This document shows positions 19,731 to 64,000 of a stretch of 64,000 bases of DNA, piece after piece. The position numbers were made by a program, and so were the translations under genes. Below the pieces are notes generated by a model. That model saw only the letters and a list, made by a program, of their open reading frames with translations, ran no database searches and had not been told where the DNA came from. This stretch comes from an uncultured bacterium. GTDB lineage: Bacteria; Patescibacteriota; Minisyncoccia; UBA6257; GWB1-50-10. Within the stretch, counting starts at the first letter, position 1; each line of letters opens with the position of its first letter. The stretch covers positions 88,420 through 152,419 of the forward strand of contig CAVYJB010000001.1 in NCBI GenBank assembly GCA_963768835.1, read 5' to 3'.

Positions 19731-19842
19731 ATGCCGGCGTACCCTACTTTCCCGACTCCCGAAGGAGCAAGTATCATCAGGCCTGCGCGCTTTCACTTCT
19801 CTGTTCGGAATGGGAAGAGGTGGTACACGCGCCGGTTAAACA
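19731..19842 (-). rRNA. rrf: 5S rRNA
   Basis: Minus-strand match to 5S consensus: GCGCTTTCACTTCTCTGTTCGGAATGGGAAGAGGTGG (loop C/E region) and helix I ends; ends approximate. Confidence 0.7.
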
Positions 19843-19875
19843 CCAGCAAACCGAAACCGTGGTGCGGAACTACCA

Positions 19876-23000
<3,125 letters not shown>

Positions 23001-59787: not shown

Positions 59788-60228
59788 CTAAATTTTAGCA
59801 CCGACGGTCTCTCGGCTAAAGCTTTTGGCGGCGGAAATCCCGATGACCGCGCCGATAATGGCTCCGGCGACGAAATCAGAGAACCAGTGGATGCTCATGG
59901 ACACCCCAAGCCCGACATACAGCGCGTAGAGGATTGCCACGACCTTCAGAAGCTTATGCTTGGGATAAAGAGCGATGAGAGCAAACATGGAGGCGAACGC
60001 CACCATGGCGTGCGAGGAAGGCCATCCCCAAAATACGCCGCCGCGAAGAAGCCCGAACCGAAATCCGTTGCTGATATCAACAGTCGAGGCCGTGAGCATG
60101 CTGGGCGGCTGGATTCGTCCGGTGAAGGGACCTTCTTGATAGGCAGGGAAATTAATACTTCTCCAAAAGTTCGTTGAGTTTAGCACAGAATTCGGGCGTA
60201 AAGCGTGAATCTTCAAAGGTATCATCAA
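59788..60228 (-). pseudogene. PAP2-family phosphatase C-terminal fragment (possibly truncated gene)
   Basis: PAP2 motifs 2 and 3 present (PSSH; SMSIHWFSD) but motif 1 KX6RP and N-terminal TMs absent; 5' end overlaps AT-rich NERD gene. Confidence 0.4.
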
Positions 60229-60934
60229 AGTACCTCTTTATGCCATCCGCACTAGTGATTATATATACCTCAGGCTTTTCAATCTTTTCTATTTTATATC
60301 GATCACCAACCATAAGAATCGCGCCTTTCACTTTAATTTGGCTAAAATCGTTTTTCATGAGCCACTCTTCAAGTGCCTCGTTGTGATACGCAGCTTCTCT
60401 AACGGGGCTTTTCCATCTTCCCAGCTGGCAATAGCAGGTATTACCATCGGGGTATCTTGAGATCTTATACACCTCGCTTTCGATGAAACGGTATTCGCCA
60501 GATAGGTTCTTGACCTCAATGGTGATAATTCCCTTCGGCCCAACGACAATGGCGTCAATATCAAATCTCTTACCGGGAATCTTAAAGTTTCTGTATAACC
60601 GATAGGAGCTACCAAGCATTTCGAGAAGTCGCTTAAACGCCTTTTCCTCTCCTAGGTTCCCTTTCAAGGCATTTTGAAGGTTGTACTTCGCCCTATCTAA
60701 CAAGTCGTCGAGCTTATGAAGTAACTTAGTTTCACCCAGTGTTATCAGGACACCCAAGAGTATGCCTATGGCACCTATCGTTGCTTTTTCATCGAGCCAG
60801 AGTTTCCGAGAGACAATATCTCTAATGCTCCAATTAAGCGCGAGGTAAGATAAGAAACCGAGCGCAAGTATAGTAACGATAATTATAAGTGCGTTCTTTA
60901 TTATTTGTCTTTTAGAAAACGATAATTTGAGCAT
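60152..60934 (-). CDS. NERD (nuclease-related domain) membrane protein on AT-rich island
   Basis: Two N-terminal TMs then NERD-like region GNLGEEKAFKRLLEML...RFDIDAIVVGPKGIITIEVKNLSG; local GC far below window average. Confidence 0.6.
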   Translation of the reverse strand: MLKLSFSKRQIIKNALIIIVTILALGFLSYLALNWSIRDIVSRKLWLDEKATIGAIGILLGVLITLGETKLLHKLDDLLDRAKYNLQNALKGNLGEEKAFKRLLEMLGSSYRLYRNFKIPGKRFDIDAIVVGPKGIITIEVKNLSGEYRFIESEVYKISRYPDGNTCYCQLGRWKSPVREAAYHNEALEEWLMKNDFSQIKVKGAILMVGDRYKIEKIEKPEVYIITSADGIKRYFDDTFEDSRFTPEFCAKLNELLEKY

Positions 60935-61129
60935 TGATGTTTAGCTCGATAGGTCTTTTATACTTGCGTGCCTTGGATTCAAACTCATCTAAATGCTAGA
61001 CCGCCTGTCGGAAATGACAAGCGGTTTAGCACATTTGTAGGCCTCTCGCATGGGGTACCCACACAGGCGAGACACCGTAAGGACCCCTTAAGGATGGCCG
61101 AGGAGGTCCGACGACGCAAGGGGGTCGGG

Positions 61130-61590
61130 GCCTGAAATGTAACATGTAACAAATGTAACACGACGTGCAAGGTTCGGGGAACGTCGCTTTTTCGGGAGAT
61201 TACCGACTAAGGCACATAGATCAAGGATTCTTTGATGGTCGAAGTGTAACATGGCAAATGCAACACCCGGAGGACTGTTTCCGCCTGAGCGAAAGTTAAC
61301 AAAGTTTACACAGGAAGAGACGTTAACTTTTATGCGTTAACTTTCTGAATCTTCGATGAAAATGGCACAAATGGCACTCCACGGTGTGACTTTATTGTGT
61401 GCCATTCTGGTGTGCCAAAGAGCCGCAAACCGGACAAAGCGGACACAAAAGGACGCAGTCCGGACGTGTCCCATTTGAACAGGGACGTGTCTCATTCCCT
61501 AAAATGGATGCCTGTAAAATAAGGCTTTTCTATGCAAATGAGACAAATGAGACACTTTTAGGGGGTGTTCCGATCGTGTCTCATTTTTCA
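61130..61590. repeat. noncoding region with at least nine different short direct-repeat doublets and inverted repeats
   Basis: GTAACA x3; GGCAAATGCAACA; GTTAACAAAGTTTACA; CGTTAACTTT x2; ATGGCAC x2; GTGTGCCA x2; CGGACA x3; GGACGTGTC x2; AATGAGACA x2; 11-bp inverted repeat AAATGAGACAC/GTGTCTCATTT next to RT stop. Confidence 0.6.
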
Positions 61591-62550
61591 GCCTACCAAT
61601 CCAATCCGTTTTCTGATGGCATAGGTGTTCCCGTGTTGCAGGAGCCCTCGGTAGGAGGATGCGGTCTCCGGTTTCGGGCGTCTCCCCATGCGCGTGAGCA
61701 CTCTTCGCTTCGTCGCGGTGCGAAGCACCCGATGATCCGGAAAGTGCACCCAGCCCAGGAAATCGACGCCGGAGGCGAGCGTGAGGATGGAAATCTTGTC
61801 GGGGTGAAGATCGAGCTTGAGCCGTTCGAAGAGGAATGCTCGGATCCTGGGGAGGATCTGCTCGAGTCGCGCGCGATCGTCCGAGAAAATCACGAAGTCG
61901 TCGGCGTAGCGGATGTAGTGGTGGGCGCGGAGGCGGTGCTTCGCGAATCGGTCGAACTCATTCATGTACACGTTCACGAAGAGCTGGGAGGTGAGATTGC
62001 CGAGGGGCAGGCCGATGCCAGGCCGCGTCGAGGAGAAGCTGCTGACAACGGCGCGGGCAAGCCATACAGTTCCTTCGCCCAGGTCCCGCGCAAGAATTCC
62101 GAGAAGCGCTTCGTGGTCAACGCTCGCGAAGAATTTCCGGATGTCGCACTTCAGAATCCAGCAGGTCTTCGTGTTGTTCTTGCTGGCCTGCCAACCGAAG
62201 CGCCGGAAGCGATCCAGAGCTTTATGTGTCCCCTTTCCGACCCGGCACGAAAAGGAATCGGCGATGAACTTCCTGTCAAAATGGGGGTAGAGCACGCGGT
62301 AAACGGCATGATGAAGGAGGCGGTCGCGGACGGTGGCTTTATGGATGTTCCGCGGCTTCGGATCGGAAATATTGAACGCTTGATAGCCGCCGTGCCGGTA
62401 GGTACGATGGAGAAGGTCGCGATGCAGAGAGAAGATGTGATCCACCAGGCGCAGGGAGAACTCCGCGACATCCGGTTTGTATCGCTTCCCGGGCAGGAAT
62501 TCTTGCCACGCCTGAAGTAAGTTCTCGACACTCGCGATTTTTTCAAACAT
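61588..62550 (-). CDS. diversity-generating retroelement reverse transcriptase
   Basis: RT motifs incl. YADDFVIF and DGR-type LGNLTSQ (I/LGxxxSQ); 320 aa from ATG 62550; cognate TR/VR pair present. Confidence 0.8.
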   Translation of the reverse strand: MFEKIASVENLLQAWQEFLPGKRYKPDVAEFSLRLVDHIFSLHRDLLHRTYRHGGYQAFNISDPKPRNIHKATVRDRLLHHAVYRVLYPHFDRKFIADSFSCRVGKGTHKALDRFRRFGWQASKNNTKTCWILKCDIRKFFASVDHEALLGILARDLGEGTVWLARAVVSSFSSTRPGIGLPLGNLTSQLFVNVYMNEFDRFAKHRLRAHHYIRYADDFVIFSDDRARLEQILPRIRAFLFERLKLDLHPDKISILTLASGVDFLGWVHFPDHRVLRTATKRRVLTRMGRRPKPETASSYRGLLQHGNTYAIRKRIGLVG

Positions 62551-62572
62551 ATGGATACGGAGCAACCCGGTA

Positions 62573-62583
62573 CCCCCCCCCCC
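62573..62583. repeat. C11 homopolymer between divergent RT and avd starts
   Basis: Eleven consecutive C on plus strand (G11 on RT coding strand), 23 nt upstream of RT ATG 62550 and 12 nt before avd TTG 62595; lies inside the longer listed RT ORF (encodes GGGG). Confidence 0.9.
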
Positions 62584-62594
62584 GACGGAACCAA

Positions 62595-62942
62595 TTGCCG
62601 GTAGTTCAAAAATTCGTCTCGGCATACAAGCTCTGGCACGAAATCGTTCCGGACTTTCCTAAAACTTCGCGCTATACCTTGGGCTCGAGAATCGACTCCC
62701 TTTTTCTGGAGACGATCGAACTCATTTTCTCCGCCGCCTCCGTCACCCCCGCGGAGAGGTTCGCAAGAGTGGGAATCGCGGCAGCGAAGCTGGATGCCTT
62801 GAAATTCCTTCTTCAAATTTCCTGGGAGATAAAAGCGCTGGATACCAAGAAATACATCCTGCTCTCCGAAAAACTCGACGAGGCGGGGAGGATGCTCGGC
62901 GGATGGTTACGGCAACTCTCGGAGAAAACTTCCCCGCGGTAG
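62595..62942 (+). CDS. avd: Avd-like four-helix-bundle accessory protein of DGR
   Basis: 115 aa; pattern KLWHEIVPDFPKTSRYTLGSRIDSLFLETIEL...DEAGRMLGGWLRQL resembles Avd/TIGR02436 four-helix bundle; TTG start as listed; opposite strand to RT and TR. Confidence 0.6.
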   Translation: MPVVQKFVSAYKLWHEIVPDFPKTSRYTLGSRIDSLFLETIELIFSAASVTPAERFARVGIAAAKLDALKFLLQISWEIKALDTKKYILLSEKLDEAGRMLGGWLRQLSEKTSPR

Positions 62943-62961
62943 CGCGGGGAAGGAAGCGGTA

Positions 62962-63076
62962 AGCTTCGAGAGAGCACGCAGTTGCCGTCGTTCCACCTGT
63001 TGTCATCCAGGTCGTTCGCATTCAGGTTCCACTCGCGGTCGTTCGAGTTCCAGTTCACGTTCACCGCAACCACGCG
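62962..63076 (-). repeat. DGR template repeat (TR), 115 bp
   Basis: 115-bp repeat of 63318-63432; all 22 mismatches occur where this copy has A on the minus (RT-sense) strand; translates as Asn (AAC)-rich pseudo-ORF VAVNVNWNSNDREWNLNANDLDDNRWNDGNCVLSRS. Confidence 0.85.
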
Positions 63077-63254
63077 TTCTATGCGCGACGCGCCGCCCAT
63101 GCCACCGCTCCTCGAATACTCTTGGAGCTGTATCGTATTCCGGGTCTAACCCGATAGCGCATCGCACCAGCTGACCTCTTTTATTTGTTGAAATCTCCCC
63201 GCCGGAGCCGTGACCGCAGCGATGTCGAGAAACTTCCTCTTTATTGTAACAAAA

Positions 63255-63279
63255 GACCCCGTTCATACCGAACGGGGTC
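63255..63279 (-). terminator. GC-rich hairpin plus T-tract 37 nt downstream of VR/target stop
   Basis: GACCCCGTTC-atacc-GAACGGGGTC 10-bp stem followed by TTTTGTT on minus strand; position matches DGR VR-proximal stem-loop and a rho-independent terminator. Confidence 0.6.
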
Positions 63280-63315
63280 AACACCGAGAACCCAAGAATC
63301 CGAGAATCCGAGAGG

Positions 63316-63981
63316 TCAGCTGCGAGAGAGCACGCAGCGGCCGCCGAACCACCTGTAGTCATCCAGGCCGAACGCATCCAGGCCCCACCCGCGGCCGTCC
63401 GAGGACCAGAGCACGCGCACCGCAACCACGCGCCCTTCCAACTGCACATAGAAGACGTTCGCGTAGCCGTTCATGAGGAGCGTGCCTTCTTCGCCCTTCG
63501 GTTGCTTCGTGAGCAGATCGCGGATGAGGGCCGCGAACTCTCCGGGCGTGAAGGGCTCCGGGTGTCCGAGTTCCGTGAGGATCTCGGAGTCGAGCATATA
63601 CTTCGTGAGCTTCGTCTGCGTGAGCGTGCCCTGGAACGCTTCGATGGTCTCGGGAATCAGGGGGAGCACCCACTGCTCGAAGTTGCTCCCGAGCCAGAGC
63701 TTCACAGGACCCTTCTTCCCGAAGAACGATTCCTTCGTGAAGGACTCAGTCGCTATCGCGATGCCGTCCGTGATGAGCTTCAGGGATTTCAGGGCGAGCT
63801 TCTTTGCGCCGTTCGTGCCAGCGACGATGAGTTTCGCCACTTCCTTCGCGAGACCTGTACCTGTCTTCATTCTTTCGAACATCCGTTCCTCGTTCCCCCC
63901 GAGCTTCACGACTTCCTTGTAGACTTCCGTGAAGAACTCTGCCCCGAAGAGCATGCCGCCAACCAACTTTGATTTCTGCAT
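63316..63981 (-). CDS. DGR target protein (221 aa) with C-terminal variable region
   Basis: ATG 63981 with GGAGGTG RBS; no signal peptide or TM; C-terminus ...AVRVLWSSDGRGWGLDAFGLDDYRWFGGRCVLSRS encoded by VR. Confidence 0.75.
   Translation of the reverse strand: MQKSKLVGGMLFGAEFFTEVYKEVVKLGGNEERMFERMKTGTGLAKEVAKLIVAGTNGAKKLALKSLKLITDGIAIATESFTKESFFGKKGPVKLWLGSNFEQWVLPLIPETIEAFQGTLTQTKLTKYMLDSEILTELGHPEPFTPGEFAALIRDLLTKQPKGEEGTLLMNGYANVFYVQLEGRVVAVRVLWSSDGRGWGLDAFGLDDYRWFGGRCVLSRS
63318..63432 (-). repeat. DGR variable repeat (VR), 115 bp, at 3' end of target gene
   Basis: 93/115 identical to TR; differences only at TR adenine positions; begins at target stop codon. Confidence 0.85.
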
Positions 63982-64000
63982 AGTGCACCTCCGTATGGTG

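Follow-up and report, generated by a model that had tools for sequence, protein, structure and literature searches.

Two repeats in the window (the whole stretch of 64,000 nucleotides that was analysed) are almost certainly the template repeat (TR, 63076..62962) and the variable repeat (VR, 63432..63318) of a chromosomal diversity-generating retroelement (DGR) in a CPR/Patescibacteria bacterium. This identification draws on the repeat pair and its adenine specificity, the identities of the adjoining genes, an architecture conserved in related loci, and a target family that is hypervariable at the same positions, all of which were directly observed. It bears out the initial annotation, which had read the pair as a DGR signature; the adenine pattern, the reverse transcriptase (RT), Avd, the target layout and the related elements were all found as that reading predicts. 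Within this known class the element is ordinary, apart from the slippery C run in its helper gene, which is unusual. Surveys of CPR bacteria already cover the class well, and the TR/VR pair is one further clean case of it; the result mainly confirms that a DGR can be recognised by reading the sequence alone. The cassette is ordered as target gene with VR, TR, avd (on the opposite strand) and RT, and comprises the following features:

63316..63981, minus strand: target (variable-protein) gene, 221 aa, with a GGAGGTG ribosome-binding site upstream
63318..63432, minus strand: VR, ending on the first base of the TGA stop codon
62962..63076, minus strand: TR, non-coding, with 29 A across 19 codons
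62595..62942, plus strand: avd core, encoding a bAvd-like four-helix-bundle accessory protein, on the strand opposite to RT, TR and VR
62551..62594, plus strand: avd 5' leader, with ATG at 62551-62553, the family-typical MDTEQPGTPPP and then a run of 11 C (C11) at 62573-62583
61588..62550, minus strand: DGR reverse transcriptase, 320 aa from MFEKIAS, with LGNLTSQ and YADD motifs

Adenine-specific differences between the two repeats

In an ungapped alignment of positions 62962-63076 with 63318-63432, 93 of 115 bases were identical with zero gaps, which is the count originally reported. All 22 mismatches fall on a plus-strand T of the 62962 copy, that is, on a minus-strand A, and the VR carries C (10), A (7) or G (5) at these sites, in agreement with the original description; read in the minus sense, the changes from TR to VR are A>G (10), A>T (7) and A>C (5). 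A tally of the substitutions by TR base places them at A only, and not across the four bases, with 0/86 mismatches at non-A positions; the probability that 22 randomly placed mismatches would all fall on A is 6.9e-18 (hypergeometric). The TR contains 29 minus-strand A, 22 changed and 7 unchanged, and the resulting 76% is close to the 75% expected under random-base replacement of each A. The homology between the repeats ends abruptly at both flanks.

Among the 19 A-containing codons of the TR, nine are AAC and one is AAT, and none of the 19 is able to mutate to a stop codon; both translations given by the initial annotation, of TR and VR, were reproduced exactly. Codon positions 1 or 2 account for 21 of the 22 mismatches, and 14 amino acids are changed. 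The remaining mismatch (TR 62966 / VR 63322) is a synonymous CGA>CGC inside the final 5 nt of the repeat. Since three related elements display non-A differences between TR and VR in this same final 5-nt stretch, it may be a 3' boundary mark (IMH vs IMH*) and not a product of mutagenesis; thus, of the 22 mismatches that had been attributed to mutagenesis, 21 stand as such and one is perhaps a boundary difference. The 3' end of the repeat carries a conserved GC-rich 15-mer that lacks A (CTGCGTGCTCTCTCG), and TR/VR homology reaches just 4 nt past the last differing A; therefore, a classical 34-bp IMH is not evident.

The TR is located 242 nt downstream of the VR, with the RT start 411 nt beyond it, and a scan of the window that allowed any base at TR adenines detected no VR other than 63318..63432. 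A paralogue on the same contig (P0010, in L002) was considered as a current target and rejected, as it matches the TR at 90/115 positions but with 7 non-A mismatches.

We also weighed an origin of the two copies by ordinary duplication or gene conversion, the TR copy being a pseudogene fragment of the target C-terminus, with normal or strand-biased point mutation. A 95-aa ORF over the TR (62813-63100) is called as a gene in the Logan annotation, in favour of this origin; however, it is antisense to the well-supported avd gene, and we rejected it as lacking support as a gene. The 22 differences are without exception at a single base of a single copy (P 7e-18), with zero differences at the 86 non-A positions, the repeats adjoin RT and Avd genes, and the pattern recurs at four other loci. 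Furthermore, A>G, A>T and A>C are all present, so that a deaminase-like or transition bias does not fit. The data already contradict an origin by duplication, and the chance that it accounts for the pair is negligible.

Reverse transcriptase, target family and related loci

The RT matches RVT_1 (E 1e-23) and PHROG 1423 (E 4e-102), and its best PDB match is 8ub7_A, the brt of Bordetella phage BPP-1 (E 1.8e-43), whereas the group II intron RTs in PDB reach 1e-19. A longer reading from ATG 62625 was rejected, given that relatives align only from MFEKIAS (62550) and that the upstream part is antisense to avd. A different class of retroelement for this enzyme (group II intron, retron or defence RT), with the repeat pair unrelated to it, is very improbable. 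The top NCBIfam match is indeed a group II intron RT/maturase model, at 135 bits far under its 300-bit cutoff, and some related phage RTs carry a 'retron-type' annotation; but BPP-1 bRT is matched 24 orders of magnitude better than any RT of a group II intron or retron in PDB, Rfam models of group II introns and retron ncRNAs gave no match in 60900-64000, Avd adjoins the RT, and the 320-aa protein has no maturase/endonuclease extension.

The VR constitutes the last 38 codons of the 221-aa target ORF, in frame, in a protein with three N-terminal helices and an alpha/beta domain. A family alignment of 29 members displays variable columns exactly at the AAC-templated positions. No Pfam model matches the target family, and its signal for a C-type-lectin-like fold is weak; the VR-encoded C-terminal tip of the target is probably a lectin-like binding face, with which the target would presumably bind a ligand. 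C-type-lectin-fold DGR variable proteins (Mtd, Treponema TvpA 2y3c and FGE-like) are among the closest known systems. A 221-aa protein family that had no annotation can hence be assigned as a DGR target; its members probably serve an episymbiotic bacterium as variable binding proteins. One target homologue, P0022, comes from the GW2011 Jorgensenbacteria genomes, the source of earlier CPR DGR surveys. Named target and Avd homologues belong to Brennerbacteria, Jorgensenbacteria, Wildermuthbacteria and other Patescibacteria, and the related loci are Patescibacteria MAGs; judged indirectly, from these homologues and loci, the host lies within CPR/Patescibacteria.

Four of the loci fetched (L003, L008 and L009/L010), representing three independent related elements with the same target family, share the target-TR-(avd)-RT layout, and their mismatches are restricted to A in 20/22, 20/21 and 13/14 cases, respectively. 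Comparison across related genomes therefore yields three independent elements with A-restricted mismatches and a 29-member family varying at AAC positions, which agrees with the adenine mutagenesis originally claimed. The TR-(avd)-RT order with a reverse-strand avd was also identified in L003, L008, L009 and L013-L019; a metagenome scan for further loci returned only a duplicate of L005.

By analogy with the Bordetella phage DGR, we infer a transcription unit, cDNA priming and homing along the following lines. The TR would be transcribed, probably as a separate RNA; RT and Avd would reverse-transcribe this RNA, inserting random bases opposite template adenines; and the A-free homologous ends would guide the cDNA to the target gene, where it would take the place of the VR. 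Up to 18 codons (~10^16.5 protein variants) at the target C-terminus could in this manner be re-randomised, while the TR would stay unchanged.

The avd gene, its C run and the state of the element

The avd core, taken to begin with the TTG at the conserved LPVVQK motif, matches PF22296 bAvd (E 1e-14), NF033474 DGR Avd (E 3e-19; 69 bits, under the 80-bit cutoff) and PHROG 3206 'Avd protein of DGR' (E 3e-19). Its conserved ATG start is out of frame because of the C11 run: the frame of ATG 62551 reads MDTEQPGTPPP and then encounters a stop codon, and the bAvd core (RRNQ-LPVVQKF...) lies in another frame. With C11, the ATG frame is +2 relative to the core, and C12 or C9 would join both. This run (62573-62583) is the sole G/C run of at least 8 nt in the 64-kb window, and on the minus strand it falls in the RT 5' untranslated region. 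In frame with the core, the sole start available is the TTG at its first codon, which could serve as an alternative start.

Five related cassettes have simple repeats at this position of avd, and four of the five are out of frame; among six cassettes found by searches that did not rely on Avd, five are out of frame. The tract measures C6, C8 and C11 among relatives of ~90% identity, and C9 vs C16 in another comparison; in one relative the repeat is a CA dinucleotide and not poly-C, and in the in-frame relatives the run is translated as P2-P5. All G/C runs of at least 8 nt and all dinucleotide repeats of at least 6 units in the loci fetched by then are located at avd/RT junctions. The tract is identical between assemblies L009 and L010, and also between the window and L001, all of these being consensus assemblies. 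Just past the window end lies a second cassette with TR, VR and avd, whose RT is only a stump and whose avd has the same C11 and the same frame shift, with no start codon at the core. Avd proteins within 90%-identity clusters come in long (124-140 aa) and short (70-120 aa) forms, which were considered as frameshift variants; this argument was dropped because the P0041/P0185 forms, encoded by identical DNA, differ only in the start codon selected by the gene caller.

Contingency loci undergo phase variation through poly-G/C tracts in Campylobacter, Neisseria, Helicobacter and Bordetella. As in these loci, the repeat of avd (a C run or CA units) separates the start codon from the conserved domain, varies in length between relatives, and puts the start out of frame in most assembled genomes; at 11 units, the run in the window also exceeds the minimum of about 7-8 units that marks such tracts. 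Conversely, avd encodes a mutagenesis cofactor and not a surface structure, its host is an uncultured CPR bacterium, and contingency loci vary within populations and switch reversibly, whereas the avd repeat is known here from consensus assemblies. In the literature searched, nothing relevant linked phase variation or homopolymeric tracts to DGRs or Patescibacteria. We tentatively consider it possible, while stopping short of favouring it, that the avd repeat is hypermutable and acts as a stochastic on/off switch of Avd, together with a TR expressed as a separate small RNA whose leader perhaps replaces the 3' spacer. Slipped-strand changes in repeat length would then turn Avd, and with it mutagenic retrohoming, on or off at random, and the window would represent the OFF phase of both tandem cassettes. 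If true, the slippery repeat would constitute a simple, testable on/off switch atop a hypermutation system, the control of DGRs being little understood.

It is also conceivable, yet rather unlikely, that the element is a relic or is switched off now, with past mutagenic homing and a present avd frameshifted at C11. This concerns the state of the element and not its identity, and is therefore compatible with the DGR explanation. In its favour, the reading from ATG 62551 runs to a stop with the bAvd core in the other frame, and the second cassette carries the same C11 and shift and no start codon at the core. Further, the VR is identical between the window and L001, a Logan contig independently assembled from one sequencing run, which differs from the window at one base outside the VR. 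Conversely, none of RT, TR, leader RNA and target ORF is disrupted, and a TTG, a legitimate bacterial start which gene callers use on related DNA, sits exactly at the first codon of the avd core. The NCBIfam Avd model starts at this same core position, so that the N-terminal extension of Avd is perhaps dispensable. Moreover, 76% of A were changed with no decay at non-A positions, which argues for homing that was recent relative to the point-mutation rate. Among five near-identical contigs of a related Giovannonibacteria DGR no VR differences were detected, these being consensus assemblies and hence uninformative on in-population variation. The initial statement that the element 'has been active' accordingly stands for historical mutagenesis; for ongoing diversification, consensus sequence gives no support.

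The template RNA and comparison with known DGRs

DGRs of CPR and DPANN organisms were reportedly treated by Paul et al. in Nat Microbiol in 2017. Architecture B3, i.e., TR-(avd)-RT with avd on the reverse strand, characterizes 90% of CPR DGRs (Wu et al. 2018, PMC5758913), and a Patescibacteria-restricted DGR clade has been described as clade 2 (Roux et al. 2021, PMC8144416). With TR at 63076..62962 (-), avd at 62595-62942 (+) and RT at 62550..61588 (-), the present element displays zero architectural differences from CPR-type B3 DGRs, and it shares with CPR-type DGRs an upstream target with a C-terminal VR and no recognisable domain, as well as a chromosomal location in a Patescibacteria genome. 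The CPR-type DGR literature examined contained no mention of a repeat run in avd, a 5' leader RNA, or a tandem cassette with an RT stump.

The DGR of BPP-1 (mtd-avd-TR-brt) has a homologous RT (E 2e-43, with IGxxxSQ and YxDD motifs) and a homologous Avd, and shares with our element the adenine-specific differences, the AAC-rich, stop-avoiding TR codons, the C-terminal VR and a stem-loop soon after the TR. In contrast to BPP-1, avd lies here on the opposite strand, between TR and RT, and consequently a spacer RNA such as the 140-nt one used for cDNA priming in BPP-1 would be antisense to avd or absent. Further differences are a hairpin with a T-run within ~35 nt after the TR, a conserved structured domain of ~160 nt 5' of the TR, TR/VR homology that ends 4 nt after the last variable A without an evident 34-bp IMH, and a location in a bacterial chromosome instead of a phage tail-fibre locus. 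The structures around the TR are as follows:

63255..63279, minus strand: GC-rich hairpin and T-run, 38 nt downstream of the VR, a terminator-like site
63243..63251, minus strand: extended -10-like box TGTTACAAT, directly after the post-VR hairpin, read from sequence
63200..63221, minus strand: leader hairpin 1, with a 5-bp stem and a conserved 12-nt loop (GGYYAMGGYT core)
63078..63179, minus strand: leader three-way-junction RNA domain, with a 12-bp closing stem and two hairpins, ending 1-2 nt before the TR
62929..62952, minus strand: 10-bp stem with a CUAC tetraloop, then TTTTCT, 9 nt after the TR

An equivalent hairpin and T-run follow the VR in 5/5 compared cassettes; the hairpin at 63255..63279 probably terminates transcription of the target gene, and may in addition correspond to the inverted repeat that other DGRs have downstream of the VR. 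A TGnTAnAAT-like box occupies the same place in 5/5 cassettes, and a two-hexamer promoter scan did not report the one at 63243..63251; on sequence grounds, the TGTTACAAT box is a candidate promoter for a separate TR RNA. At the other end, a hairpin with a T-run after the TR was found in 5/5 cassettes, the avd stop codon being situated, on the other strand, in the loop of that at 62929..62952. Avd-binding stem-loops have been predicted just downstream of the TR in 207/278 DGRs (Handa et al., bioRxiv 10.1101/2023.10.23.563531), and the stem-loop at 62929..62952 is a candidate Avd-binding site and/or TR RNA terminator.

For the leader, a whole-RNA fold of 63240..62900 was not significant by itself (z = -1.7), and structural support thus comes only from comparative analysis. 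In hairpin 1, evaluated on hand-picked segments from 8 cassettes, 97.5% of cells are paired, 5/5 pairs show compensatory changes, and 0/500 shuffles match the score. The three-way junction comprises 27 pairs (RNAalifold), with 95% of cells paired, compensatory changes in 17/27 pairs, and likewise 0/500 shuffles matching the score; a covariance model of it (R1) recovered the domain 5' of the TR in 11 distinct cassettes, one of them with a different target class. A search of 60900-64000 against Rfam (cmscan, E up to 1), including the RT-associated motifs of Weinberg et al. 2017, gave no match for the leader/TR region, the sole hit being anti-hemB at chance level (19.9 bits vs a 49.5-bit gathering score).

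The TR RNA is pictured as probably a separate transcript of ~320 nt, with the structured leader on its 5' side and a stem-loop on its 3' side. In the Bordetella phage element, cDNA synthesis is positioned and primed by a 3' spacer RNA, a role that the conserved leader may take over here. If true, the leader RNA would show how RNA and protein assemble in DGRs with a reverse-strand avd, where the place of the 3' spacer is taken by a gene on the opposite strand.

Adenine-specific variation and cassette anatomy

The initial annotation had read positions 62962-63076 and 63318-63432 as the template repeat (TR) and variable repeat (VR) of a diversity-generating retroelement (DGR), with 93/115 identities and all 22 mismatches at a plus-strand T of TR, that is, a minus-strand A. 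Our recomputed gap-free alignment and recount reproduced both figures, the translations given for the two repeats were exact, and substitutions were not spread over the four TR bases, with 0 of the 86 non-adenine positions differing; the observation holds throughout, and the DGR reading is correct. In the minus sense, the substitutions from TR to VR comprised 10 A>G, 7 A>T and 5 A>C, and the probability that 22 randomly placed mismatches would all hit adenines is 7e-18. TR holds 29 minus-strand adenines, 22 changed and 7 unchanged in VR, which fits the 3:1 ratio predicted if every adenine is replaced by a random base. The similarity breaks off sharply at either edge. The 3'-most mismatch (62966/63322, CGA/CGC) is synonymous and lies within the last five bases of the repeat; because three related elements carry non-adenine TR/VR differences in these same bases, this difference may reflect the limit of the transferred segment and not mutagenesis. 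Adenine occurs in 19 TR codons, nine of them AAC and one AAT; none of the 19 can reach a stop codon by adenine mutation, and TR gives access to about 10^16.5 protein variants.

Features of the cassette, in genomic order from the target gene
63981..63316, minus: target ORF, 221 aa, with a good ribosome-binding site
63432..63318, minus: VR, last 38 codons of the target, ending at the T of the TGA stop
63279..63255, minus: GC-rich hairpin and T-run, 38 nt 3' of VR
63221..63200, minus: second leader hairpin, with a conserved GGYYAMGGYT loop
63179..63078, minus: three-way-junction RNA, 102 nt, directly 5' of TR
63076..62962, minus: TR, non-coding
62952..62929, minus: stem-loop 3' of TR (10-bp stem, CUAC tetraloop) with a T-run
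62595-62942, plus: bAvd-like accessory gene avd, between TR and the reverse transcriptase (RT) gene (PF22296, E 1e-14)
62550..61588, minus: RT gene (RVT_1, E 1e-23)

The avd gene is the sole functional part on the plus strand, all others being on the minus strand, and it also matched the NCBIfam profile 'DGR protein Avd' and the PHROG profile 'Avd protein of DGR' (both E 3e-19). The RT displays the motifs LGNLTSQ and YADD; its top solved relative is chain 8ub7_A (E 1.8e-43), verified as brt of Bordetella phage BPP-1, and group II intron RTs reach 1e-19. TR also falls within a 95-aa minus-strand ORF (62813-63100), antisense to avd. This ORF, and not avd, is in the Logan annotation; it is in all likelihood a gene-calling error masking the accessory gene.

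By analogy with the Bordetella phage system, the RT and Avd would reverse-transcribe the TR RNA, random bases would go in opposite adenines, and the resulting cDNA would replace VR. Likely homology anchors are the adenine-free 15-nt termini of the repeat, CGCGTGGTTGCGGTG on the 5' side and CTGCGTGCTCTCTCG near the 3' end.

Related elements and a second cassette

Three independent elements, represented by four fetched loci, share the target family and the order target-TR-(avd reverse)-RT. Their TR/VR mismatches fall at adenines in 20/22 cases in a Brennerbacteria metagenome-assembled genome (L003), 20/21 in the MAG contig JBGGGZ010000212 (L008) and 13/14 in Jorgensenbacteria from the GW2011 groundwater set (L009/L010). 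IMG/VR contigs bearing RT relatives at 49-62% identity likewise have a reverse-strand avd directly upstream. The order TR-(avd)-RT corresponds to architecture B3, found in 90% of the Candidate Phyla Radiation (CPR, or Patescibacteria) set of Wu et al. (2018) and almost never elsewhere (PMC5758913), and one DGR clade is confined to Patescibacteria (Roux et al., 2021; PMC8144416). Therefore, the window element is a typical CPR-type B3 DGR, and its intrinsic surprise is low, since this class is already known.

Over the part that it shares with the window, the Logan contig L001 is 99.97% identical, differing only at 62615, and it runs 1.1 kb beyond position 64000. There, upstream of the target gene in the minus sense, L001 1-1033 (window coordinates 65111-64079, past the window end) carries a second cassette, consisting of the end of a truncated target gene with VR2, the leader motif (105 bits), TR2 (13/13 mismatches at adenines in the homologous part), a reverse-strand avd2 59% identical to avd and likewise bearing a C11 run, and an RT stump retaining only the first ~40 codons. 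The one intact RT, that of the window, may act on both templates. Tandem DGR cassettes recur in the lineage, as the IMG/VR contig L018 (3-2797) harbors two cassettes with two related RT genes in tandem, between which lie a leader motif, a TR region and a reverse-strand avd.

The repeat run inside avd and the leader RNA

The window contains a sole G/C homopolymer of at least 8 nt, a C11 run (62573-62583) located between the divergent avd and RT starts and, in the avd sense, between the ATG and the helix-bundle start LP(V/I)(V/I)QKL. Among the loci fetched to that point, all G/C runs of at least 8 nt and all dinucleotide repeats of six or more units lay at avd/RT junctions.

Repeat run (avd sense) and frame of the avd start codon relative to the avd core
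Window cassette 1: C11, out of frame
Second cassette (L001): C11, out of frame
L003: C7, in frame
L008: (CA)14, out of frame
L009: C9, out of frame
L018: C8, out of frame

The start was out of frame in 5/6 cassettes, all six found without reference to Avd, a count in which the C-run frames call for caution, as homopolymer lengths in assemblies are possible errors. In the window (62551-62595), the ATG frame reads MDTEQPGTPPP and then a stop, and the core RRNQLPVVQKF is read in a different frame; a run of C12 or C9 would fuse both, and translation could begin from the TTG that forms the first core codon. The N-terminal extension, with the run translated as P2-P5, is present in 66 of the best 120 Avd homologues. 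The CA repeat that replaces poly-C in L008 shows that conservation applies to the repeat and not to a proline motif; of the proline codons in these genomes, CCC makes up only 18-45%. Tract length varies among relatives of ~90% identity (C6, C8 and C11; also C9 vs C16). Judged from sequence, the run has the signature of a contingency locus and may act as a phase-variation switch on the DGR. Variation in Avd protein length was dropped as frameshift evidence, being a gene-caller artefact: for identical DNA (loci L037-L042), public collections list Avd proteins of either 139 or 120 aa, according to whether GTG or TTG was chosen as start, so differing lengths among the proteins of a cluster do not show that their sequences vary. 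No link between DGRs and phase variation was found in the literature searched, which did not cover Paul et al. (2017).

As for the leader, RNAalifold on five cassettes folded it into a three-way junction of 27 pairs, 10 with compensatory changes, and a covariance model built from these five matched four more IMG/VR loci and a Giovannonibacteria DGR with a different target class, always just 5' of TR. Over nine distinct sequences, 95% of cells pair and 17/27 pairs show compensatory changes; 0 shuffles reach the score, and slid registers drop to 28-50% paired. The second hairpin, farther 5', is supported in eight cassettes from hand-picked segments, the overall covariation support for the leader being 8-11 cassettes. 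No Rfam family matched in 60900-64000. In the Bordetella phage element an essential structured RNA lies 3' of TR, whereas in the window the corresponding stretch is antisense to avd; the 5' leader may therefore have taken over part of that role. A phase-variable avd together with a lineage-specific 5' leader RNA is a joint reading that we hold tentatively, as somewhat short of probable, and which, if true, would be of interest to DGR specialists.

In all five cassettes compared, a TGnTAnAAT-like box immediately follows the target's terminator hairpin, a ~160-nt leader separates this box from TR, and a stem-loop with a T-run lies 9-20 nt 3' of TR. This anatomy fits a separate RNA of ~320 nt and suggests a transcription unit different from that of the Bordetella phage model. 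The stem-loop at 62952..62929 agrees with the Avd-binding stem-loop predicted just downstream of TR in 207/278 DGRs (Handa et al., bioRxiv 10.1101/2023.10.23.563531).

Target family and genomic surroundings

The target has 29 homologues, in which no Pfam domain was found, and those named by organism are all Patescibacteria (Brennerbacteria, Jorgensenbacteria). Conservation across the family alignment is good save at positions templated by adenine-containing TR codons, with the consensus RVVAVxVxWxSxxRxWxLxAxxLxDxxWxxGxCVFSRS. The AlphaFold model (pLDDT 84) comprises three N-terminal helices and an alpha/beta domain, from which the fold is plausibly lectin-like. A 56% identical paralogue (P0010; L002 8177-8860), on the same 353-kb contig and outside the window, has no RT nearby; its VR-like end matches the window TR at 90/115 positions, with 18 adenine and 7 non-adenine differences, and it is either a former target of this TR or the target of another template. 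Family members also occur in other Patescibacteria genomes (L004, L005/L006, L007, L011/L012); their fetched flanks contain no RT, avd or TR, and they are orphans or remotely served. In L007, the gene after the family member encodes an RNase H domain protein.

The window carries 23S and 5S rRNA and five tRNA genes, so the DGR is chromosomal. The 5S rRNA comes after the 23S rRNA, no 16S rRNA gene is present in the 64-kb window, and the 23S match (19732-22999, minus) spans 3103 nt against a 2925-position model and thus probably holds an insertion. Direct and inverted copies of the word CAAATGnnACAC (11-12 nt) are densely clustered at 61130-61590, in the intergenic stretch from the RT stop codon to a NERD-domain gene, with 11 of the 21 window-wide matches (~9 expected by chance in the whole window); this cluster is absent beside the related DGRs, and a Logan contig break coincides exactly with its start. 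The product of the next gene 3' of the RT (60152-60934, minus; 260 aa) has membrane-like helices at its N terminus as well as a NERD nuclease-related domain (E 5e-17); the gene lies in an AT-rich stretch, in contrast to the GC-rich DGR.
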